From an uncultured Pseudomonadota bacterium (GTDB taxonomy: Bacteria; UBA10199; JADFYH01): a DNA stretch of 64,000 nucleotides. The notes below the pieces were generated by a model that saw only the letters and a list, made by a program, of their open reading frames with translations, was not told the DNA's origin and searched no databases. The translations under genes were made by a program, and so were the position numbers. Location of the stretch: the NCBI GenBank assembly GCA_964384365.1, contig CAYLKF010000001.1, forward strand, positions 212,079 to 276,078. Reading direction: 5' to 3'. The stretch's first letter is position 1. Every line of letters begins with the position of its first letter. Of the stretch, positions 3,735-61,411 are shown in pieces.

Positions 3735-3823
3735 TACCTCCTCATATCAGGCCCCACCGTTACAAATTCGCCCAAGCTTTCTAAACCTTCTCGAAGATGC
3801 GCGTTTCGCACATGCTCGAAGGT
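3735..3823. repeat. Left direct repeat: orphan copy of the last ~29 codons plus stop of the ABM-family gene at 11537..11818
   Basis: Base-by-base alignment of 3735..3823 with 11538..11626 gives 86/89 identical (mismatches at 3740, 3770, 3796). The minus-strand reading encodes ...FEHVRNAHLREGLESLGEFVTVGPDMRR-stop, but stops lie immediately upstream, so it is a gene fragment. Confidence 0.85.
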
Positions 3824-11536: not shown

Positions 11537-11818
11537 CTACCTTCTCATATCAGGCCCCACCGTTACAAATTCACCCAAGCTTTCTAAACCTTCTCGAATA
11601 TGCGCGTTTCGCACATGCTCGAAGGTAACTTGGGCGCCCCACTCTTCGATAAAATTAAACTGATAAGTTTCGCTTGGATTTTGTTGAAATTCAAAACCCA
11701 AACATCCCGCACTTTTTAAAGCCGCAGCAATGGTGATACTCAAAAAATTCTTCATCGCTTCTTCTTGACCCGGCAAGGCTTTATAAAGTGAAATCATCCT
11801 CACAGTTTTACGGCGCAT
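11537..11818 (-). CDS. Antibiotic-biosynthesis-monooxygenase (ABM) family protein
   Basis: About 93 aa with an ABM-like pattern (ISLYKALPGQEEA...GCLGFEF...FIEEWGAQVTFEHVRNAH). The track start is a TTG at 11830; first ATG at 11818 has GGAG 6 nt upstream. Its 3' end is the right direct repeat. Confidence 0.6.
   Translation of the reverse strand: MRRKTVRMISLYKALPGQEEAMKNFLSITIAAALKSAGCLGFEFQQNPSETYQFNFIEEWGAQVTFEHVRNAHIREGLESLGEFVTVGPDMRR
11538..11626. repeat. Right direct repeat (the intact 3' end of the ABM gene)
   Basis: 86/89 identity to 3735..3823. Confidence 0.85.
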
Positions 11819-12471: not shown

Positions 12472-12543
<72 letters not shown>

Positions 12544-12555
12544 ACAAACCGCCTT

Positions 12556-12662
12556 CCATAAAAATGCATCTGCGGTGTTGCCACTCCTCAACACTCCTCA
12601 CATACCATTAGAGATATGCTCCGGTTGTTTCCTCGTGGCTGCCTAGCATCTGCAATTTTTCT
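12556..12662 (+). repeat. Intergenic block-conserved element, copy 1 of the GTTGCC / CCTCAC / GCTCCGGTTG / GCCTAGCATCTG family
   Basis: Shares four blocks at near-identical spacing with 29261..29336; an internal hairpin co-varies between copies (CATA..TATG here, CGTAC..GTACG there). Confidence 0.5.
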
Positions 12663-12687
12663 GTAAGGCTATTACCAAACTAATATG

Positions 12688-12894: not shown

Positions 12895-13413
12895 TTGAAA
12901 GGGCAGATGAAAGTTTTGTTGAGTGCCGAGCAGATTCATCAACGCGTAAGCGAGCTTGCGGATGAGATTTGCCGCGACTATGCGGGCCAGGAACTCACTC
13001 TAGTAGGAGTTTTAAAAGGTTCTTTTATTTTCATGGCTGATTTGATGCGAGCCTTAAAACTCTCTCTTCGTTGCGATTTTCTGAGGATTTCAAGCTATGA
13101 TGGCAAAGGCAAGGCTGGCAATATTCGCCTGGATTTTGATCTCATTCAACCCATCGAAGGCTCTCACGTACTTTTAGTCGAAGATATTTTAGATACGGGT
13201 CAAACCCTTCGTTTTTTACTCGCCCATTTGGCTACAAAAAAACCAAAAAGTTTAGAAATTTGTAGTCTTCTTGATAAACAACTCGATTCCACCTTAAGCC
13301 AAAAAGTACGCTATGTGGGCTTTCAAGTGCCAAAGCAATATTTGGTGGGCTATGGTTTAGATTTAGACGGGCATTATCGCGAACTGCCTTACGTTGCACA
13401 GATTGAAATTTAA
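12895..13413 (+). CDS. hpt: Hypoxanthine-guanine phosphoribosyltransferase
   Basis: PRPP-binding motif VLLVEDILDTGQT. The track start is a TTG with GGGAGG 7 nt upstream; an in-frame ATG follows at 12907. Confidence 0.88.
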   Translation: MKGQMKVLLSAEQIHQRVSELADEICRDYAGQELTLVGVLKGSFIFMADLMRALKLSLRCDFLRISSYDGKGKAGNIRLDFDLIQPIEGSHVLLVEDILDTGQTLRFLLAHLATKKPKSLEICSLLDKQLDSTLSQKVRYVGFQVPKQYLVGYGLDLDGHYRELPYVAQIEI

Positions 13414-17845: not shown

Positions 17846-19885
17846 TTATTCCATTTTGAAAACCGGCGTGCGAATCGGCGCAATCGTAAATCCAAAAGTG
17901 AAACTTTGACCCGGTGCCAGATTTTTCTGCCAACTGGGCAACTGCATCGTGGTTTGGTTTGCCGTTTTCGAAATCAAATCGACACTCCACGGCGAAAAAC
18001 CATTTCCTACATTCGCTGAAAATCGCAATCCGCTGAAGGTTGTAGATTTTGTCGTATTCTTGAGCACTGCCTTCATGTTGGCGCCACTCCAAGCTTCTCC
18101 CCTGCCCCACTCAGAATCGATTGAGAGCGTCAAGGTTAAGCCCGACGCAAGATTCTGCACCATTGATCCTTCTGTAGGATTCTGAGGGGGAGAAGGATCC
18201 GGTGCGGGGCTCGGAGCAGGGCTAGGTGGAGCAAGCTCTGTGGCGTTTTGCAAACTGAACGACGGCGTACTCAAAGGAGTCACTGTAAAACCAAAGGTAT
18301 AAGTTTCTCCAGGATCTAACGTGTTGTTGTAAGAGGGTAAACCTACCACGGTTTCAGAAGCGGTTTTCTGAACAGGATCCATACTCCAAATATTAATTCC
18401 ATTTCCTTGATTCGCTTTAATTTGAATTTGATTAAAAGTTTTGGAACTACTCATATTTTTAAGGGTGGCTTTATAAGTCGCTCCACTCCAGGGCTCCCCT
18501 TGGCCCCAAGAATTATCGACAACAAGTTGTAATTGAAAATCGGGCGAGATTGTTTGTGTTAAAGATCCGGGTGTTGGTGCAGGAGCAGGAGCTGGGCTGG
18601 GTGTTGGTGTTGGAGTTGGTGTTGGAGTCGGCGTTGGTGTAGGAGCGGGAGTAGGTGTTGGCGTAGGGCTTGGTGTGGGTGTAGGAGTGGGTGTAGGAGC
18701 AGGTGGAGGATTCCCATACAAAGTTTGAGAAACCAAAGAAGTTAAAGCATATTGATCATCGAGATCAATCGCCCAAATCATGGCTCCGCCCAGTTGTTTA
18801 TTCGTTAAATAATTCAATTTGCGGGTAATCGATTCCGAATCGTCGTAACTAATCCAATTTCCCCTTCCATCGTAGGCATAAGGCGTATCGGTATTTGAGT
18901 CCCACATACGCTGATATTGGCCACTATTCACGAGCTGCTCAATTTCATAATAAGCCATGAAACCGGCTTCTTGAGTGCAAGTGCCTCGCGGCGGATTCGG
19001 ACTCCACGGATTGGTGATCGTACTATTAGGCAGATTGGCCGAAGCGCTGCCAAAGCTTCTTCCATAAAACGGAATTCCTAAAATCAATTTCGACGAAGGC
19101 ACTCCCGCGTTGAGATAAAGATTCACAGTATAATCGATGTAAAAATGCCCATTGGGCACGGAGTCGTGCATCAAGGGCGAGTTGACTCCCGTTTTTGAAT
19201 CCCAACTTCCATGAAAATCGTAAGTCATGAGATTGATAAAATCGAGATAAGGATGAATCAAAGAAAGCTCGTAATTGGCAATGTGCGCTTCGCCCGCAGG
19301 AGCTGCGATTGTAAGCAAAAGCTTTTCTTTTCCGGCAGGAACCCGCTCGGCATCAATGGCTTGCCGAAATTCTTTGAGCAAGGCCGTAAAATTTTTCTTA
19401 TCTTGAGAAGTTCCAGAATGCTCTGCGAATCCGGGGTATTCCCAATCGAGATCAATTCCATCAAATCCGTAAGTTCGGGCATAAGTCATGGCTGAATTAA
19501 TAAAAGTTGCCCGCCGAGCAGAGCTTGAAGCCATCGCAGGAAAGGCATCACTTAAAGTCCAGCCCCCAATTGAAATCAAAGTTTTTAAATGGGGATACTG
19601 TTGTTTGAGGCTATTCAACTGCTCATACAAACCCGGAGAACCGCTGCTGATGTCATTCCACTCAACGGGTTGCACTTGATCACCCGCTCCAATTTTTGCA
19701 AAGGCATAATTGATATGCGTAAAATATTCGGGCCGGACATTGGCAGGAGTGAACTTGCATTGACCCGGCCGGTATTGAGCCCAATTGGTGAAATAGCCAA
19801 CAACTCGTGGAGTGGTATCGGCTCGCACTTCCAGAGAGAAGGCTAAAAGGAGAAATCCCAAAATCAACCGACTCAAGGCTTTCAT
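17846..19885 (-). CDS. Secreted GH18 chitinase with Pro/Thr linkers and two C-terminal CBM2-like modules
   Basis: Signal peptide, catalytic motif [11 protein letters not shown], long PT-repeat linker, two about 100-aa Trp-containing modules ([11 protein letters not shown]... and [11 protein letters not shown]...). Confidence 0.88.
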
Positions 19886-26631: not shown

Positions 26632-29229
26632 ATGGATTTTATTAGCTCCAAAAATTTAAGACCTCTCTTAAAAAGCATTATCGAATCGATTGTCGAATTG
26701 CATATTGGTCATCGTTTGATCGATAGTTTTTTGGTCTTAACCCCCAATGAAACAAGTGCCGAAGATTTAAGACAACTTTTTTTACAAAATCCTCAACTTG
26801 GAGGAGTGCTCACCGGCAAAAGTATCACTTCTCTGGGCAAATGGATTGCGCAATCAAGCCAAGAAATAGATTATAAAGCAAAAAAAGCACCTTCTTATAT
26901 TCAAGAAACTTTGCTCAAAAGTATTGTTCATCCCGATTTAACTGCAAATTACTCCGAGCTTTCTTACAAAAGCATTTTACTTTTGATTCAATCGTTCCGC
27001 GAGGAGTTCTTCAATGCTGCGTCTCTCAAAAATTTTCTCGAAGGATTTGACCCTGTTTTGGCGCAATATTGCCATGCGTGGTTTAAAAACTATGAACAAG
27101 CCATCGAACAGCACGCTCATCTTAAAGATTTTACCTGGCAGGCCGAGCTCTGTTTTCGGGAAATTTCTCAAAAAAAATTAACCGCTTTAAAGCCCATTCG
27201 TCGCATTTATTACTTAGGTTTTTTAGATTTCCCTCCCCTTCTCAAGAAGCTGACTCAAAGCCTTGAAAAATATTATCCAGAAATTTCTCAGATCGTGCTT
27301 TGTCAAATTCCTGAAACCTTAGACCCTCAAGATTATCTTTCTAAAACTTGGGAAGAAAATCTAAAAAATCTAAATTATTTTGAAGATAAAAGCGAAAATA
27401 CACTTTCGCTCAATGAATACACGAGCCCCTTCGAAGAAGCTTCGGCTCTCCTCTCAGAAATAAGTGAAAAAATTCAGGCGGGTGTTGATCCGAGCAGCAT
27501 TGCGCTCACGCTTCCTGCAAACGATTTCTGGCAGCACTATTACCAAGAACAACTCGAGGCCTTGGGGCTTTTTCCTCATTTTCCTTCGAATAAAAAACTC
27601 AGCCGATGTCTTATTCTTGAAGATTTTTTTGATCTTACTGCCCCACAAGCACTCGAAAAAGTAGAAACTTTACTCACTCAAAAAAGAAAAATTTTAAATT
27701 CCCTTCGCCAAACCTTGCCTGCCGAAGAATTAAAAGCGCTCGAAGGCTTTAAAGAAACTTTAGAGGAGATCCTTTTTTATCAAGAAGAATATCCGTGGCT
27801 AAAACCCCATTTTCCTTCTCTGCGTCAAATTGCTCAGCAAATTTTTCTACCTTTAAAGAGGGTTAGCCATCGCGGCATTCAAATTCGAAGCTTAGATCAA
27901 GTGGGGTTAAAACAATTTTCTTATAATTTTATTCCTCAACTCACGGAGAGCTCTTTTCCAAAAAACCCCGAACGTTTTTTGGGGCTCGCTCTCCCCAACC
28001 ATTCAAGAGAGCTCAGCTACCAACAAGCAATCTACCAAGATCTGCTGCACTCCGCTCAAGAAGTAAAAATTACTTATTCAAAAGTGGGGGTCCAGGCCAG
28101 AGAGCAAAGTCCTTCGTCGTTCATCATCGGAAATTTTAACCCAAGCTCTTTTCCAAATCTCTTTTGGGGAGCCCCTCTCCTCCCCGCTTCTTTTTCAGAA
28201 CGATTGGCCACTGAAAGGCTTCGCCAAGAAGATCTGAATTACCAACACGCTTACGGAGGCTGGATCACCAACAAGCAAACTTTAGAAAAATTGCAAAATT
28301 GGGCGGCCCAGGCTTTTTTCTCGGCCTCGCGCCTTGAAAAATATGCAAACTGCCCTTTTAGCTTCTTTGCCAGCACACTGCTCCGACTCGAAACAGAAGA
28401 AGAAAAAAATCTAGAAGGCGATGCGCGAGAGCAAGGAAAATGGGTTCACCAGTTGCTTGAAAACTTCTTCAAACAAAATCGTGATCTGCTTAAAAATGCT
28501 GGCTTCAATCGTGAACTTCGAAAAGAAGTCGAAGAAAAAATAAAAGAAGAAATTCACCGGGCCGCAGCACTTTTTTTAAAAAACAAACCTTGGGTGCACC
28601 CCAAGCTTTTTGAAGATTTTGCAGAGCGTGCCTTAAAAACCTGCCACGACCTCTTTCAACATTTTTGGAAACAATGGGAAGAAAAACGCCCCGCTCTTTT
28701 TATTCCAGAATTTTTTGAATATTCTTTCGGAAAAAATACAGCCCTTACCCTTCAACGCCAGGGCCTGCCTCCCCTTCGTTTAAAGGGTCAGATCGATCGC
28801 ATCGATGTTAGCGAAGATCGAAAAGAATTCATCACCTGGGATTATAAAACCGGCGGAGTGGAGGGGCTTACGCGAGAGATTAAAGAATTTAAAAAACTCC
28901 AACTCCCTCTCTATCTCAGGGCGGCTCAAGAGATTGAAAGTTTACAGGCAAGCACGGGGGTGGCTTCTCTTGCGCTGGGATTAAAAGAGATGAACGATAA
29001 TCAAGGCCTTGCCCAAAAAGAGCGTGCCTCCGTTTTTGGATTCAAAGGCCGTCCCGGATGCCTGCTCCCCGAAAAGGCTTGGGAGGATTTTTGGCCGGCG
29101 TTTGAAGAGAAAATTCTAGATTATTTTGAAAAAATTTATCGCGGCGATTTTCGCACTCAACCCGAACCTTGTTCGGAATATTGCGAATACCGCACGATTT
29201 GTCGATACCATGAACGCAAAAAATCTTAG
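26632..29229 (+). CDS. AddB-like PD-(D/E)XK nuclease subunit with C-terminal Cys cluster
   Basis: C-terminal nuclease motif DRIDVSEDRKEFITWDYKTG and Cys cluster CSEYCEYRTIC; no clear helicase motifs. Confidence 0.65.
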   Translation: MDFISSKNLRPLLKSIIESIVELHIGHRLIDSFLVLTPNETSAEDLRQLFLQNPQLGGVLTGKSITSLGKWIAQSSQEIDYKAKKAPSYIQETLLKSIVHPDLTANYSELSYKSILLLIQSFREEFFNAASLKNFLEGFDPVLAQYCHAWFKNYEQAIEQHAHLKDFTWQAELCFREISQKKLTALKPIRRIYYLGFLDFPPLLKKLTQSLEKYYPEISQIVLCQIPETLDPQDYLSKTWEENLKNLNYFEDKSENTLSLNEYTSPFEEASALLSEISEKIQAGVDPSSIALTLPANDFWQHYYQEQLEALGLFPHFPSNKKLSRCLILEDFFDLTAPQALEKVETLLTQKRKILNSLRQTLPAEELKALEGFKETLEEILFYQEEYPWLKPHFPSLRQIAQQIFLPLKRVSHRGIQIRSLDQVGLKQFSYNFIPQLTESSFPKNPERFLGLALPNHSRELSYQQAIYQDLLHSAQEVKITYSKVGVQAREQSPSSFIIGNFNPSSFPNLFWGAPLLPASFSERLATERLRQEDLNYQHAYGGWITNKQTLEKLQNWAAQAFFSASRLEKYANCPFSFFASTLLRLETEEEKNLEGDAREQGKWVHQLLENFFKQNRDLLKNAGFNRELRKEVEEKIKEEIHRAAALFLKNKPWVHPKLFEDFAERALKTCHDLFQHFWKQWEEKRPALFIPEFFEYSFGKNTALTLQRQGLPPLRLKGQIDRIDVSEDRKEFITWDYKTGGVEGLTREIKEFKKLQLPLYLRAAQEIESLQASTGVASLALGLKEMNDNQGLAQKERASVFGFKGRPGCLLPEKAWEDFWPAFEEKILDYFEKIYRGDFRTQPEPCSEYCEYRTICRYHERKKS

Positions 29230-29231
29230 GT

Positions 29232-29354
29232 GGCACCTCTAAAAACCACCCATCTGCCTTGTTGCCTGTTCGCTTACAATCCTCACGTACATTTAAAGTA
29301 CGCTCCGGTTGCAAGCTCACAGACGCCTAGCATCTGGACATTTTTAGAGGTACC
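29232..29354 (+). repeat. Intergenic block-conserved element, copy 2, with terminal inverted repeats, between the AddB-like and AddA-like genes
   Basis: Arms GGCACCTCTAAAAA and TTTTTAGAGGTACC (13/14 complementary); interior blocks shared with 12576..12652. Confidence 0.55.
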
Positions 29355-29368
29355 AAAAGTAAATAAAG

Positions 29369-39880: not shown

Positions 39881-40026
39881 TAGACTTCTTTCGTAACCGT
39901 CACGAGCAATTGACCTGCAAGGCGCGGTGGGACCCGTTTTCCGTAGCGTACAGTGACGTACGTGAGGAAAATGGGGGAACCGCAACGCAGCAGGGCATTT
40001 GCGCAGTAGGTTACGAAAGAAGTCTA
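39881..40026 (-). repeat. Long inverted-repeat element filling the purH-purD intergenic region (18-bp perfect arms, 110-nt interior)
   Basis: TAGACTTCTTTCGTAACC (39881..39898) and GGTTACGAAAGAAGTCTA (40009..40026). The right arm contains the purH stop codon. The interior, read on the minus strand, contains CCTCACGTAC..GTACGCT.CGG related to the 12556 and 29232 elements. Confidence 0.6.
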
Positions 40027-41618: not shown

Positions 41619-42749
41619 CTAATTCGATGTCGACTGAGCTCGCACTGCTAAACGAGGAACCCGACTAGAAATCCCACAAAAAATTTCGTAAGAAATTGTT
41701 TTAATTTTACTGGCCAACTCTTCGGCAAACAAAACTTCTTCGCCTTGTTTACCAATCACCACCACTTCATCTCCTAAAGCCACTTCGGGGATATCGGTTA
41801 CATCAATCAAAGTTAAATCCATGCAAACTCGCCCCACCACCGGAACCCGCCGCCCTCGCACTAAAACTTCGCCACAATTTGAAAACGAACGCGAATAACC
41901 ATCGGCATAACCTAAAGCCATAATGGCAATCTTACTCGGACGAGACGTGTAATAGCTTGCCCCATAAGATAAAGCCGCCCCTGAAGGAAATTCTTTTAAA
42001 GAAACGATCTCCGTTTTCCAACTCAAGACTGGTTCTAATCGAATTTGAGACTCAAAACGTGGATTCGGATAAGCCCCGTACAACGCGATACCCGGCCGCA
42101 CCAGGCTTGTTTGATCGACCCGTTTTTCAATTAAGGCCGCACTGTTTGCAATATGAAAAAAAGGGATCTGCATTTCGCTTAATTTTTCGCGCACCTCTTC
42201 AAATCGAGAGTACTGCTCTTCGGTGGGGTGCGGGTTTTCTTCATCCGCACAGGCGAGATGGGTCATTACTCCTTCTAATTTCAAGGCGGGAGAATCTTGA
42301 ATCAATTTCAAATAACGCGAAAGCTCTTTTGGAAAAATTCCCAAGCGCCCCATGCCGGTATCGATTTTGAGATGAAAAGGTAAAATCGAGGGCGAACCCG
42401 AAAGTTCTTGGGCCAAGCGGCGCAGAGTTTCTTCTTCAAATAGAACGGGGGTAATTTGATATTCGAGTAAATCTTTGGCACTGGCTTTAAAGGCTCCGCC
42501 AAAACACAAGATCGAACGCGAAATACCTGCTTTTCGAAGCTCCAACCCTTCTTCAATCGTCGCCACCCCAAAAGTAGTTGCGCCCTCAGCCTCTAAAACA
42601 CGCGCCACAGTAACTGCACCATGCCCGTAAGCATTGGCCTTCACCACGGCCAAAATGCCTTGATCCCCTGCACAGGCTTTTAAGGCTTGATAATTATGGC
42701 GAAGAGCGGCCAAATCGATTTCACAAAAACTAGGGCGGAAAAAGGGCAC
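41619..42749 (-). CDS. alr: Alanine racemase
   Basis: PLP-binding motif AVVKANAYGHG. Start codon is GTG. Confidence 0.9.
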   Translation of the reverse strand: MPFFRPSFCEIDLAALRHNYQALKACAGDQGILAVVKANAYGHGAVTVARVLEAEGATTFGVATIEEGLELRKAGISRSILCFGGAFKASAKDLLEYQITPVLFEEETLRRLAQELSGSPSILPFHLKIDTGMGRLGIFPKELSRYLKLIQDSPALKLEGVMTHLACADEENPHPTEEQYSRFEEVREKLSEMQIPFFHIANSAALIEKRVDQTSLVRPGIALYGAYPNPRFESQIRLEPVLSWKTEIVSLKEFPSGAALSYGASYYTSRPSKIAIMALGYADGYSRSFSNCGEVLVRGRRVPVVGRVCMDLTLIDVTDIPEVALGDEVVVIGKQGEEVLFAEELASKIKTISYEIFCGISSRVPRLAVRAQSTSN

Positions 42750-42764: not shown

Positions 42765-42925
42765 ATTCCAGAATGTTTTCTTTAATTTTTTTGGATGTCT
42801 GAGCGTCCAAAAACAATCGCTCTTGAACTTTCACTCGCGGTTACTCAAAAACACGAAAAACGCACCGTGAAAGAGCGATTCAAAATCGCGAGTTTCCAAA
42901 AAAATTAAAGAAAACATTCTGGAAT
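42765..42925. repeat. 161-bp palindromic element with 30-bp perfect inverted-repeat arms in the divergent alr / MBL-gene promoter region
   Basis: ATTCCAGAATGTTTTCTTTAATTTTTTTGG (42765..42794) is the exact reverse complement of 42896..42925. The 101-bp interior has nested inverted repeats. Confidence 0.8.
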
Positions 42926-42993: not shown

Positions 42994-43752
42994 ATGTCAA
43001 AACTTAAAATAACATCGATTGGGCACGCGAGCCATCTCATCGAGATGGACGGCGAATTTCTGATTACTGATCCAAATTTCTCGCGAAAAATGTGGATTGC
43101 GAAACGTGAAAAAGAGCCCGGAATTGCCCCCGAAGATTTACCCCAGCTCGCCGCGATTGTTGTTACTCATGCACACTACGATCACCTCGATCTTTTTAGT
43201 TATAAATACTTCTCCATTCATATTCCAATCGTAGTGCCCGAAGGCTTGGGGAGTTTTATAAAAAAGCATCTACGAAACCCCGTAATTGAAATTCCAAAAG
43301 AAGGTTCTGTGTTGGTGGGAGGAATCAAAATCCATCGCGTGCCCGTAAAACATTTTGGTTTTCGCCTTTTCGGGCTCACCTGGCGTGAAACCACAGGTTA
43401 TCTTTTTGAAAAAAACGGCAAAAAAGTTTATTTTCCGGGCGATACCGCTTACGGCGATGGTGAGCATTTTCGAAAAGCGGCTGCAAAACACGCGATTGAT
43501 GCCGCCCTACTCCCAATTGGTGCTTATGCCCCGCGCTGGTTTATGAAAAGTCGGCATATGAATCCACCCGATGCCCTTCAAGCGTTTAGCGATTTAAAAG
43601 CAAAAGTGATGATTCCTTATCACTGGGGAGTATTTCAAATTTCTGCCGAACCTGTCGAGGCCCCGCGGGAATGGCTCGAGCAAATTCTCAAAGAAAAACC
43701 GGATTCTCGCGTAAAAATCTTGCGCCCCGGAGAACATTGGAGCTCCGAATGA
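42994..43752 (+). CDS. MBL-fold metallo-hydrolase
   Basis: Metal-binding motif VTHAHYDHLD. Confidence 0.8.
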   Translation: MSKLKITSIGHASHLIEMDGEFLITDPNFSRKMWIAKREKEPGIAPEDLPQLAAIVVTHAHYDHLDLFSYKYFSIHIPIVVPEGLGSFIKKHLRNPVIEIPKEGSVLVGGIKIHRVPVKHFGFRLFGLTWRETTGYLFEKNGKKVYFPGDTAYGDGEHFRKAAAKHAIDAALLPIGAYAPRWFMKSRHMNPPDALQAFSDLKAKVMIPYHWGVFQISAEPVEAPREWLEQILKEKPDSRVKILRPGEHWSSE

Positions 43753-56928: not shown

Positions 56929-57021
56929 TCTTAAAATTCTCCTAGAAACCTCTGAAAACTAGCCAGACGTCAGGCATCTGCAAACGAGCAACAATGCAGA
57001 TGGGTAATTTTAGAGATTCCC

Positions 57022-57675
57022 TCACTTCTTTTCGTCTTCAGGTTTATACTCGAAATATTCGCTGCGAATCTTGCTTCGGCCCGTTGCAGGAAAAACTTCA
57101 ATCGAATAAAAGCTCTCTTCTTTTTCATCGGTCAAATTGATCACGGCTTTTTCAACCCAACCATTCGGAAAAAAATAAATCGCCACCTTTCCCGATTCCA
57201 CTTTTTTTCCATAATGTTCCACATACACATCTTTAATTCGAACCCCACTCGGAATCTCGATAGGTTTTAATAAAAAATTCGTCTCTTGATTAAAACTTAC
57301 TTGGGCGGCCCCTTCGGGCTCGGGCTCTGGAGCATTTGCGTCTGTATTGGGAGCTGTGCTTGCCTTCGGTTCAGAACCCACCGAAGGATCATCGGGAGTT
57401 CCATCTGGCGTTGCAACAATTTTAAAAGGATCTTCCGCAGATTCTACAGAAAAAGTACGAGCACCAAAATCAATTAAGAGGCGATAGTATTGATTCTTCA
57501 CCGCCGCTTCATTGTAGACATATTTGATTGTACCGGAGAGTTGATCGGCCGTGGTTGAAATCTTTTCCCCAAACAAGTCCTGCAGAGTAAAGGCAGTAAG
57601 CCCCATAATGAGGGCAATCACCGCCACCGTGACCATGATTTCAATTAAAGTGAAGCCACGTCGGCTCTTAAACAT
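57022..57675 (-). CDS. gspH: Type II secretion system minor pseudopilin H
   Basis: Prepilin motif GFTLIEIMVTVAVI. Confidence 0.75.
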   Translation of the reverse strand: MFKSRRGFTLIEIMVTVAVIALIMGLTAFTLQDLFGEKISTTADQLSGTIKYVYNEAAVKNQYYRLLIDFGARTFSVESAEDPFKIVATPDGTPDDPSVGSEPKASTAPNTDANAPEPEPEGAAQVSFNQETNFLLKPIEIPSGVRIKDVYVEHYGKKVESGKVAIYFFPNGWVEKAVINLTDEKEESFYSIEVFPATGRSKIRSEYFEYKPEDEKK

Positions 57676-59530: not shown

Positions 59531-59701
59531 TCGAAATAATTGTCCTTAAATTTTCATTATTATAATTTCTTTTAGAACCGTTATGAGCGGGCTCAAGACA
59601 AGGCGGGCGAGGAGAAAAGCCGCAGCGTATATGAATATACGTGAGGATTTTTCGACGAACCCAACGCAGTCATTAGTCCGCGTAATAGGTTATAAAAGAA
59701 A

Positions 59702-61411
59702 TTATTCTCTCATCTGATCTTCTTGTGTAACTCGGAGCAACTCTTCAATGGTTGTTTCTCCCGCCAAAACTTTTCGCGCTCCATCTTCACGCAGAGTAAG
59801 CATTCCTTTTTCCATCGCACGTCGCTTAATCCGGCCGGCCTCGACCCCTTTCATAATCATGGAACGAAGTTCATCATCCATCACCAAAATTTCATGAATA
59901 CCGGTTCTACCGGCATAGCCCGTATCTAAGCAGGCAGGGCAACCTTTGGCCTTGAAAACAAATTTATCGACAACCTTCGCGGGATCTAAGCCTATCTGCG
60001 CCAGCTCCTCGGCACTAGGTTTATAACGAGCGCCACATTCTTTACAGACTGTTCGCAAAAGACGTTGCGCCATAATGGCGATCACCGATGAGGAAACCAA
60101 AAAAGGCTCCACACCCATATCGATCAAACGCGCAATCGAAGAGGCCGAGTCGTTGGTATGTAAGGTTGAAATAACCAAGTGTCCGGTGAGTGATGCCTGA
60201 ATTGCAATTTCGGCGGTTTCACGATCTCGAATTTCTCCGATCATCACTACGTCTGGATCTTGACGCAAAATCGATCGCAAACCGGTTGCAAAAGTAAGAT
60301 CGATCTTCGGGTTCACTTGAATCTGGTTAATACCCGGAATTTGATATTCAACAGGATCTTCAACCGTGATGATTTTCAAATCGGTGGAGTTAATCTGAGA
60401 AAGCATGGCATATAGAGTTGTCGTTTTACCAGATCCGGTAGGCCCTGTGACCAAGATAATTCCGTGACTTTTATGGATTAAACTTTCGACGGTCTTTAAA
60501 TTCTGCCCTTCAATTCCAATAACTCCCAGAGAAAGAACAACTTTACTCTTATCGAGGAGACGCATCACAACCGATTCTCCAAAACTCGTAGGCAAAGTCG
60601 AAACACGAATATCGATATCTTTTCCTGCAATTTTAATACGAATACGCCCGTCTTGAGGGAGTCGCTTCTCCGCAATATTGAGATTAGCCATAATTTTAAT
60701 ACGACTAATCACCGAATTTTGAACTTTTTTAGGCGGATGCATAATATCGTAGAGCACCCCATCGATTCGAAAACGCACGACCAAATCTCGCTCAAAGGGC
60801 TCAACGTGAATATCGGAGGCTTTCGACTTTACAGCGCGAGAGAGCAAACTATTTACAAGTTTAATGATAGGCGCTTCATCAGAAACATCTAACAAATCTT
60901 GCGGTTCTTGAAGTTCTTGAGCCAGGGTATCTAGATTTTCTTCCGAAAGATCTTCCATCACGGCCTGATCGGTTTCGGTGTTTCGATTATAAACTTCGTT
61001 AATGGTTTCTAAGATTTGAGAGGAGCTCGCAATAACGGGCTTGATCGAAAGATTGAGCAAAACATGTAAATCGTCTAGGGCATGAATATTAATCGGATCA
61101 GAGATGGCCACTTCGAGATCGTCCCCAACTTTGCGCAAAGGAAGAAGTTCATTTTTCTTCGCATAGTTAATGGGAATTTTCTTGATATAGTCGTAGGGGA
61201 TCTCATCTGTTTTCAGGCGACTTGAATAAGGAATACCCACCTGAATACTAATCGCCTTCAAAATATCTTCGGATTTTAAATAACGAAGCTGAACGAGAGC
61301 TTCTCCTAACTTTATATTCTTTTCCCGCTGAACCAGTAAGCCCTCTTCAAGCTGGGCTTCGGTGAGAGAAGTATTTTCGAGTAAAATATTTCCAAGGCTT
61401 CGATCATCCAT
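59702..61411 (-). CDS. gspE: Type II secretion system ATPase E
   Basis: Walker A GPTGSGKTTT and C-terminal Cys motif. Track start 61468 is a TTG; first ATG at 61411 has GAGGA about 10 nt upstream. Confidence 0.9.
   Translation of the reverse strand: MDDRSLGNILLENTSLTEAQLEEGLLVQREKNIKLGEALVQLRYLKSEDILKAISIQVGIPYSSRLKTDEIPYDYIKKIPINYAKKNELLPLRKVGDDLEVAISDPINIHALDDLHVLLNLSIKPVIASSSQILETINEVYNRNTETDQAVMEDLSEENLDTLAQELQEPQDLLDVSDEAPIIKLVNSLLSRAVKSKASDIHVEPFERDLVVRFRIDGVLYDIMHPPKKVQNSVISRIKIMANLNIAEKRLPQDGRIRIKIAGKDIDIRVSTLPTSFGESVVMRLLDKSKVVLSLGVIGIEGQNLKTVESLIHKSHGIILVTGPTGSGKTTTLYAMLSQINSTDLKIITVEDPVEYQIPGINQIQVNPKIDLTFATGLRSILRQDPDVVMIGEIRDRETAEIAIQASLTGHLVISTLHTNDSASSIARLIDMGVEPFLVSSSVIAIMAQRLLRTVCKECGARYKPSAEELAQIGLDPAKVVDKFVFKAKGCPACLDTGYAGRTGIHEILVMDDELRSMIMKGVEAGRIKRRAMEKGMLTLREDGARKVLAGETTIEELLRVTQEDQMRE

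Follow-up and report, generated by a model that had tools for sequence, protein, structure and literature searches.

ERIC elements are described as MITEs of the Enterobacteriaceae and Vibrionaceae (PMC3184786, PMC10969869), and elements of the ERIC type carry terminal inverted repeats (TIRs) flanked by 5'-TA-3' (Delihas review, PMC3184786). As RNA, such repeats can act on the transcripts that contain them: the ERIC hairpin affects mRNA in Yersinia via RNase E (PMC3184786, PMC10969869), and the hairpin of the Correia element of Neisseria is cut by RNase III (2024 review, PMC10969869). In Bradyrhizobium, small RNAs have been associated with repeat-containing 3'-UTRs (2016 paper, PMC5082802). Neither PMC3184786 nor PMC10969869 mentions relatives of ERIC in other lineages or an enzyme that mobilises ERIC.

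Here we describe a repeated hairpin element in a 64-kb stretch of DNA (hereafter "the window") from a genome whose nearest named relatives are MAGs labelled Deltaproteobacteria, outside the enterobacterial and vibrio range given for ERIC (PMC10969869). We consider it likely that this is an ERIC-type, MITE-like insertion element that is co-transcribed inside operons and belongs to a widespread superfamily of imperfect palindromes of ~125 nt that includes ERIC/IRU.

Five copies of a hairpin element lie in intergenic spacers

The window contains five copies of the element, namely four of full length (~125 nt) and one that is internally deleted. A preliminary description of this DNA had counted at least three; those three are all confirmed (97, 82 and 81 bits with the covariance model R1 introduced below), and it had missed the copy at 59571-59694 (minus strand) and the deleted one at 56942-57022 (minus strand). 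The copies and the parts of c2 are as follows.

c1: 12547..12674, plus strand; full length, same subtype as c2; between tRNA-Cys (12472-12543, minus) and a phosphoribosyltransferase gene (12895-13413, plus; Pfam PF00156)
c2: 29231..29358, plus strand; full length; between an AddB-like gene (stop TAG 29227-29229) and an AddA-like gene (ATG 29369), neighbours assigned by Pfam
c2 outer stem: 29232-29245 paired with 29341-29354
c2 conserved module: CCATCTGCCTTGTTGCC at 29250-29266 opposite CGCCTAGCATCTGG at 29324-29337
c2 apical core: 29281..29308, plus strand; CCTCAC-GTAC-ATTTAAA-GTAC-GCTCCGG, an exact match to the core pattern
c3: 39881..40026, minus strand; between purH and purD; R1 match 39890-40015
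c4: 56942..57022, minus strand; internally deleted; between two pseudopilin genes (Pfam N_methyl on both)
c5: 59563..59704, minus strand; between a T2SS ATPase E gene (stop TAA 59704-59702) and a T2SS F gene (ATG 59530), Pfam T2SSE and T2SSF; R1 match 59571-59694

Copies c1 to c3 each fold into a long imperfect hairpin, with outer stems that are wholly different in sequence yet complementary. At the tip of c2, a variable loop is closed by a 5-bp stem, which is flanked by an asymmetric internal loop of 5'-TCA opposite 5'-CTSC. The model scores c2 at 97.4 bits (E 1.5e-29) and its opposite strand at just 9.4 bits; the fold of 29229-29356 reaches -40.9 kcal/mol (z -4.9 versus shuffles). Corresponding values are 81.2 bits and a fold z of -3.2 for c1, and 82 bits and -66.2 kcal/mol (z -8.3) for c3, both again relative to shuffles. 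Copy c5 scores 58.8 bits (E 7.8e-17). The core pattern, CCTCACNTAC-N4-16-TANGCTNCGG, occurs three times in the window as compared to no occurrence in 100 dinucleotide-preserving shuffles, and the E values of c1, c2 and c3 (about 1e-24 to 1e-29) belong to scores far above the best unrelated match in the window (12.5 bits), which together rule out chance for the window copies. The deleted copy c4 surfaced in an inverted-repeat search against c2 (81% over 32 nt) and scores 19.3 bits (E 8e-4); in it, the apical core is missing, and the outer stem remains together with the two halves of the CCCATCTGC..GTTGC / GCCTGACGTCTGG module.

No open frame runs through any of the five copies. Each lies on the strand of its downstream gene, and four of the five also on that of the upstream gene. 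In these four co-directional spacers, the element occupies almost the entire space, with one end at or within the stop codon of the upstream gene and the other 12-40 nt short of the next start. Given this position between co-directional genes, with neither a promoter nor a terminator of its own, the element is probably carried along in the operon transcript.

Beyond the core, identity between window copies drops to 33-56%, and they show no greater likeness among themselves than with copies of other phyla. They fall into at least two subtypes, c1 with c2 and c3 with c5, the latter pair grouped by overall similarity. The outer module of c1 and c2 is of the CATAAA.../...TTTCTGA type; that of c3 reads CTACTGCGC.../...GCTCGTGACG. 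The blocks by which the preliminary description had united c1 to c3 are accordingly of two kinds: the core is common to all three, but GTTGCC, GCTCCGGTTG and GCCTAGCATCTG are shared by c1 and c2 only, c3 being of the other subtype. Copy c3 has the terminal inverted repeat TAGACTTCTTTCGTAACC...GGTTACGAAAGAAGTCTA, into which the purH stop codon (TAG, 40026-40024) falls, and bears TA at each end, and c5 carries a core variant (CCTCACGTAT..ATACGCTGCGG) and inverted ends (AATTTCTTTTATAACC/GGTTCTAAAAGAAATT) with TA flanking both sides. Inverted ends are found in every copy, but they differ from copy to copy instead of being the shared terminal inverted repeats of a MITE, and the conserved part of the element is its centre, not its ends. 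Such differing termini, together with the low identity between copies, are unlike a recently active MITE recognised by its ends, and no parent insertion sequence or transposase came to notice.

Several other features of the window are recorded here as separate observations. A 161-bp element at 42765-42925 has perfect 31-bp terminal inverted repeats (ATTCCAGAATGTTTTCTTTAATTTTTTTGGA ... TCCAAAAAAATTAAAGAAAACATTCTGGAAT), yields no R1 match and sits in a divergent spacer between two genes, one with its end at 42749 and the other with its start at 42994; its appearance is that of a young MITE from a different family. An 89-nt direct repeat (3735-3823 and 11538-11626; 97% identical) lies in two intergenic regions 7.8 kb apart and forms a hairpin, CCTTCTCGAAGATGCGCG...CGCACATGCTCGAAGG, of no unusual fold energy (z -1.4 and -1.0). 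A tandem array with 12/18-nt periodicity (GGTGTTGGTGCAGGAGCAGGAGCTGG...) at 18568-18707 falls inside a 679-aa ORF (17846-19885, minus) and points to a low-complexity repeat segment in that protein. Next to c1, a gene for a '23S rRNA intervening sequence protein' (PF05635; 12039-12404, minus) is located between tRNA-Leu and tRNA-Cys.

Both arms of the hairpin covary

The stems are not alignable by sequence (MAFFT with RNAalifold on 82 sequences recovered the apical helix alone), so a hand-seeded covariance model was needed. This model, R1, comprises 127 positions and 38 pairs, was built from 27 copies, none of them enterobacterial, and takes its structure from pair frequencies. Applied to 765 kb of loci, it returned 120 copies at E <= 1e-3, 16 of which lack the exact search pattern. 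In the R1 alignment, standard pairs fill 83.9% of cells, as compared to 56.8% with partners shuffled and at most 42% with partners slid; two-sided changes occur in 37 of the 38 pairs, and the covariation score is 0.54 versus 0.146. Since the alignment was fitted to the structure, these figures are biased in its favour; the gap to both controls is still large.

The 16 pattern-free copies provide a view of the tip. Their apical 5-bp stem covaries (CGTAC/GTACG, CATAC/GTATG, TTTAC/GTAAA, CGTGC/GCACG), as do the closing pairs, and the asymmetric internal loop, 5'-TCA / 5'-CTSC, is fixed. The compensatory stem change that had been noticed between c2 (CGTAC/GTACG) and c1 (CATA(C)/(A)TATG) is real, and across the family this pair is GC in 79, AU in 30, UA in 6 and CG in 3 copies.

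Covariation of this kind is no proof of RNA function. Mismatches in the variable pairs are symmetric (161 GT+TG versus 152 AC+CA), so that G-T and A-C are equally frequent, and RNA selection on one strand should favour G-U. Palindromic DNA arms can also stay matched through template switching during replication. Such quasipalindrome correction is an established mutational route, reportedly described by Ripley (1982) and by the Lovett laboratory. As to the original suggestion of either an RNA family or a REP/MITE-like repeat, the repeat half of it stands, backed by multiple copies, presence or absence at orthologous sites and a structural-profile kinship to ERIC (see below); the RNA half does not follow from the covariation.

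There are signs of strandedness nonetheless. Based on crude ORF calls, copies between co-directional neighbours are in sense orientation 28 times and in antisense 13 times across the family, and the upstream gene is on the element strand 52 times versus 25 times on the opposite one. What had been described as an orientation that is always sense thus holds for all copies in the window but becomes a bias of only about 2:1 in the family at large. Conserved G-U pairs are also present at two positions of the inner module. The conserved asymmetric loop, the orientation bias and the five sense copies in the window suggest a strand-specific constraint.

Two readings other than a mobile repeat bear on these observations. 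One is a domesticated intercistronic RNA element, in which the hairpin with its invariant UCA/CUSC loop would be kept by selection for a conserved RNA-binding protein or RNase and would set the expression ratio of the flanking cistrons. The sense bias, the constancy of the asymmetric loop while the adjacent stems covary and the conserved G-U pairs would all fit, but the symmetric mismatches do not, since a constraint acting on RNA only should favour G-U, and the neighbouring genes have no function in common. Taking these together with the comparison of relatives given below, we regard this as unlikely, if deserving of attention. The other reading is a DNA-level site, that is, a folded core (cruciform or single-stranded) read by a conserved recombinase, nuclease or replication/repair factor, with the symmetry maintained by template switching. 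A symmetric mismatch spectrum, stems that covary despite sequence differences between phyla and a centre more conserved than the termini are all in line with it, and template switching would give two-sided changes without RNA selection. An orientation bias relative to transcription would not be expected, however, and we know of no candidate enzyme; we judge this reading improbable.

Gene context speaks against purine control and an independent RNA gene

Because two of the copies precede the phosphoribosyltransferase gene (hpt) and purD, the element had initially been connected with purine metabolism. A purine-responsive, riboswitch-like cis-regulatory RNA ahead of these genes would account for those two of the five copies, but the remaining three precede AddA, a pseudopilin and T2SS F, respectively. 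The neighbours as a whole (AddB/AddA, purH/purD, tRNA-Cys/phosphoribosyltransferase, pseudopilins and T2SS E/F) are unrelated and reveal no purine theme, and the family adjoins unrelated genes in many phyla. In addition, relatives have purH-purD spacers of a few nucleotides that are devoid of the element, no Rfam riboswitch, purine or other, matches it, and its hairpin is a rod that lacks the architecture of a ligand pocket. The association with purine genes hence appears coincidental; gene context refutes a purine regulator, to which we assign a negligible probability.

A search of Rfam, proposed as a check in the preliminary description, assigns the element to no family: at the gathering score, two tRNAs were the only hits in the whole window, and a permissive search around c2 (E up to 10) gave noise only, with nothing better than E = 5. 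Other look-alikes, namely the tRNA T-arm (GGTTCGAATCC in some copies), group II intron domain 5, SRP RNA, the sarcin-ricin loop, the DnaA box, parS and attC, were dropped, having neither Rfam support nor a consistent match.

An independently transcribed family of small RNA genes could be expected to have a stable, strand-asymmetric structure such as that seen here, and the Bradyrhizobium small RNAs tied to repeat-containing 3'-UTRs that are discussed in PMC5082802 offer a parallel. Yet promoter-like and terminator-like signals on the element strand around c2 do not exceed shuffle expectation, the spacers are occupied by the element from the stop codon almost up to the next start, and Rfam holds no match, which makes this interpretation very unlikely. 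The Bradyrhizobium repeats Br-REP1/2 were considered as relatives of the element and rejected, their sequences being unrelated (PMC5082802).

The element is present or absent at orthologous operon junctions

In the closest relative found (L136), the DNA of the genes shares 81-93% identity with that of the window, with full synteny. Its orthologue of c3 is 97.6% identical over a 165-nt spacer, as compared to 87.5% for purD and 93% for purH. Being better conserved than the flanking coding DNA, c3 fits a selected function better than junk, and the same figures count in favour of a domesticated RNA element. This conservation argument comes from one orthologous pair, however, and since the adjacent purH is also unusually similar, a local recombination tract is possible at c3.

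Other sites differ between relatives. Among the genomes compared, c2 is found in the window only: the addB-addA spacer of L136 consists of an unrelated 56 nt, and in a second relative (L137) addB and addA overlap. Conversely, L136 has a copy of its own at the dksA/gshA junction, where the window has none. The purH-purD site is empty in L125, L126 and L137, with spacers of 7-16 nt; that close relatives manage with such spacers, free of the element, argues against domestication. The purH-purD, addB-addA and dksA/gshA junctions of these five (window, L136, L137, L125 and L126) therefore display the presence/absence polymorphism characteristic of a MITE. The five relatives more distant than L136 (about 103 kb in total) contain no copy, and a metagenome scan for close relatives of AddA returned only homologues at 38-39% identity. 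A Logan short-read contig that carries this purD breaks off within c3, as is usual for assemblies at a repeat.

TA...TA brackets are found at c3, c5 and the dksA/gshA copy of L136, and are ambiguous at c1, c2 and c4. At the three bracketed copies, the left TA supplies the first two letters of the upstream stop codon, and the element's own first base supplies the third. Across the family, a crude test for such TA...TA ends counted 12 cases versus 7-13 in controls and did not stand out from them.

One relative (L128 6604-9958; L129 2306-5660) has purH and purD split by ~3.5 kb containing a nucleotidyltransferase/HepT-like toxin-antitoxin pair and three unannotated genes. This interruption marks the junction as an insertion hotspot in the clade.

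A common core recurs in at least 12 labelled phyla

Scanning 185,579 species genomes with the core pattern yielded at least 120 loci. For 17 fixed bases and a variable gap, we estimate that hundreds of matches would be expected by chance in 596 Gb. Among the matches listed, however, 117 of the 118 usable genome matches lie at the tip of a long hairpin (median 42 enclosing pairs, median length 157 nt), and we therefore rejected the possibility that they are mere chance; three loci (L020, L066 and L042) are chance matches and were dropped. The hairpins have 32-56 enclosing pairs, and R1 matches span 124-128 nt. Inner blocks occur at a constant distance from the core in nearly all matches listed, reading approximately YTGCGTTG in the 5' arm and CGCCTTGCA in the 3' arm. 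The consensus of the 25-base core, CCTCAC-NTAC-loop-GTAN-GCTSCGG, is found within equally long hairpins in at least 12 phyla by genome label.

Going by record titles, these comprise Nitrospirota, Desulfobacterota and other 'delta' lineages, Myxococcota, Acidobacteriota, Planctomycetota (Scalindua), Bacteroidota (Alistipes, Rikenellaceae), Fibrobacterota (Fibrobacter), Bacillota (Bacillus, Alkaliphilus and others), alpha-Proteobacteria (Rickettsia, Tisiphia, Holosporaceae, Devosia), beta-Proteobacteria, gamma-Proteobacteria (Enterobacterales, Pseudomonas, Woeseiaceae), Verrucomicrobia, Elusimicrobia (Elusimicrobium), Deferribacterales and Binatia. The core was also present in 65 viral or prophage contigs, and 43 of the 64 usable ones contain true hairpin elements, which indicates a possible route for spread. 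Other genomes have several copies per 8-kb locus. Copy pairs in tandem, almost head to tail, were seen in Mucinivorans and Woeseiaceae (L095 2902-3029 and 3056-3183; L083 5908-6029 and 6033-6154).

Just five matches fall inside long open frames, and the two of these that are named by title are from high-GC Nitrospirota MAGs, where the frames are probably spurious. In-frame gene insertion was accordingly rejected as a property of the element. We found no description of such a superfamily in the literature, be it under the core sequence, as BEE95/RSA or as ERIC-like elements beyond enterobacteria, and one may have been given earlier.

Relation to ERIC and other known repeats

The classical ERIC primers ERIC1R and ERIC2 bracket a core similar to that of the element. 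A genuine E. coli ERIC copy, in the ybhJ-ybhI spacer, reads ...CTGCGTCTGCGTTCGCTCACCCCAG-TCACTTAC-TTAT-GTAAGCTCC-TGGGGATTCACTCGCTTGTCGCCTTCCTGCAAC... and is aligned by R1 over all 127 positions, scoring 28.4 bits (as compared to 12.5 bits for the best unrelated match in the window) with an E value that for this one E. coli copy, under a rough calibration, is about 1e-7 to 1e-8. A Photorhabdus copy with an ERIC-type core (CCCCAGTCAC...GCTCCTGGGG) scores 22.8 bits. BLASTN of the ERIC copy against the window copies gave no match.

The likeness is one of architecture. ERIC and the element are both imperfect palindromes of about 125-127 nt, in which an apical TCAC-NTAC-loop-GTAN-GCTCC and inner CTGCGTT / CGCCTT blocks are set at equal spacing. 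Both are intergenic, ERIC often within transcription units (PMC3184786) and the element mostly between co-directional genes, and the TA at the ends of ERIC (PMC3184786) has its counterpart at c3, c5 and the dksA/gshA copy of L136. Stems and termini, by contrast, are entirely different in sequence, and the pairs closing the core are CCCCAG/TGGGG in ERIC and CC/GG in the element. Judging by one roughly calibrated covariance model applied to one E. coli and one Photorhabdus copy, ERIC/IRU and the window element may thus be placed in the same superfamily.

E. coli harbours a second family, which R1 also detects. A Citrobacter copy of the element matches all 5,426 of 5,426 complete E. coli genomes (median 5 places, with 12 places on plasmids). 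The K-12 copy is positioned as follows.

Second E. coli family, K-12 copy: NC_000913.3 2689507-2689670 (L122 4537-4650, minus strand); in the glrK-qseG spacer, with the exact core, unannotated in RefSeq K-12

Like c2, this family has the core CCTCACGTAC..GTACGCTCCGG, in identical form, a long hairpin and a location between co-directional genes. Its arms differ from those of the window copies, and BLASTN links just 33 nt of core. To judge by the title of Bachellier & Hofnung (1996; cited in PMC3751351), it may correspond to the 'RSA/BEE95' repeats.

Contigs of Rickettsia, Tisiphia and Holosporaceae also yield copies with the model. These have the same termini as c3, TAGACTTC...GAAGTCTA, and the outer module of c3 likewise recurs in the Rickettsia-type copies. 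Rickettsia palindromic elements (RPEs), compared here by their published description, are similar in size (about 105-150 bp; PMC3184786). RPEs are noted for in-frame gene insertion (PMC10969869), whereas every copy in the window is intergenic, as are the Rickettsia-type ones.

Correia elements (CREE) of Neisseria and other TA-flanked MITEs resemble the element in being short and non-coding, in having inverted ends and in being co-transcribed, as the element probably is. The conserved part of Correia elements is their termini, unlike the window element, where it is the centre. With REP/BIME the element has in common that these are intergenic palindromic repeats at the 3' ends of genes; REPs, however, are hairpins of ~35 nt (PMC3184786), often clustered, as opposed to single copies of ~125 nt with a different, asymmetric core.

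Discussion

With a high though not overwhelming degree of confidence, we read the element as an ERIC-type insertion element. According to this model, a small non-coding element would have moved into very short spacers between operon genes of this lineage. Where the ends are clear, insertion would have taken place at a TA within the stop codon of the upstream gene, and the stop codon would be regenerated. We know of no enzyme that moves the element. Once co-transcribed, its long RNA hairpin would change how the flanking cistrons are processed, degraded or coupled in translation, by analogy with ERIC and RNase E and with Correia elements and RNase III. For the annotation of the window, this implies that the element should be masked as an insertion-type repeat and not called as an RNA gene. 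A caution is also to be drawn from it: two-sided, seemingly 'compensatory' changes, even when abundant, are not enough on their own to demonstrate that a palindromic DNA repeat has an RNA function.

More tentatively, ERIC, the second E. coli family, the Rickettsia-type copies and the window elements could be branches of a single bacteria-wide superfamily, defined not by its ends but by an invariant 5'-UCA/5'-CUSC loop between covarying helices at the tip of a ~125-nt hairpin; we are inclined to doubt this somewhat more than to accept it. If it were true, a conserved partner would be expected to read the folded tip, either an enzyme that mobilises the element by way of single-stranded or cruciform DNA or else an RNase or RNA-binding protein, and propagation would be unlike end-recognised transposition.

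ERIC has been treated as a peculiarity of enterobacteria and vibrios (PMC3184786, PMC10969869), and the same architecture and core are found here in at least 12 labelled phyla. The reader of the core and the mode of movement thereby become questions for comparative genomics, which may look for a co-occurring gene family and for gene-carrying versions of the element, and the unannotated copy in the glrK-qseG-glrR gene cluster offers a tractable handle in E. coli.
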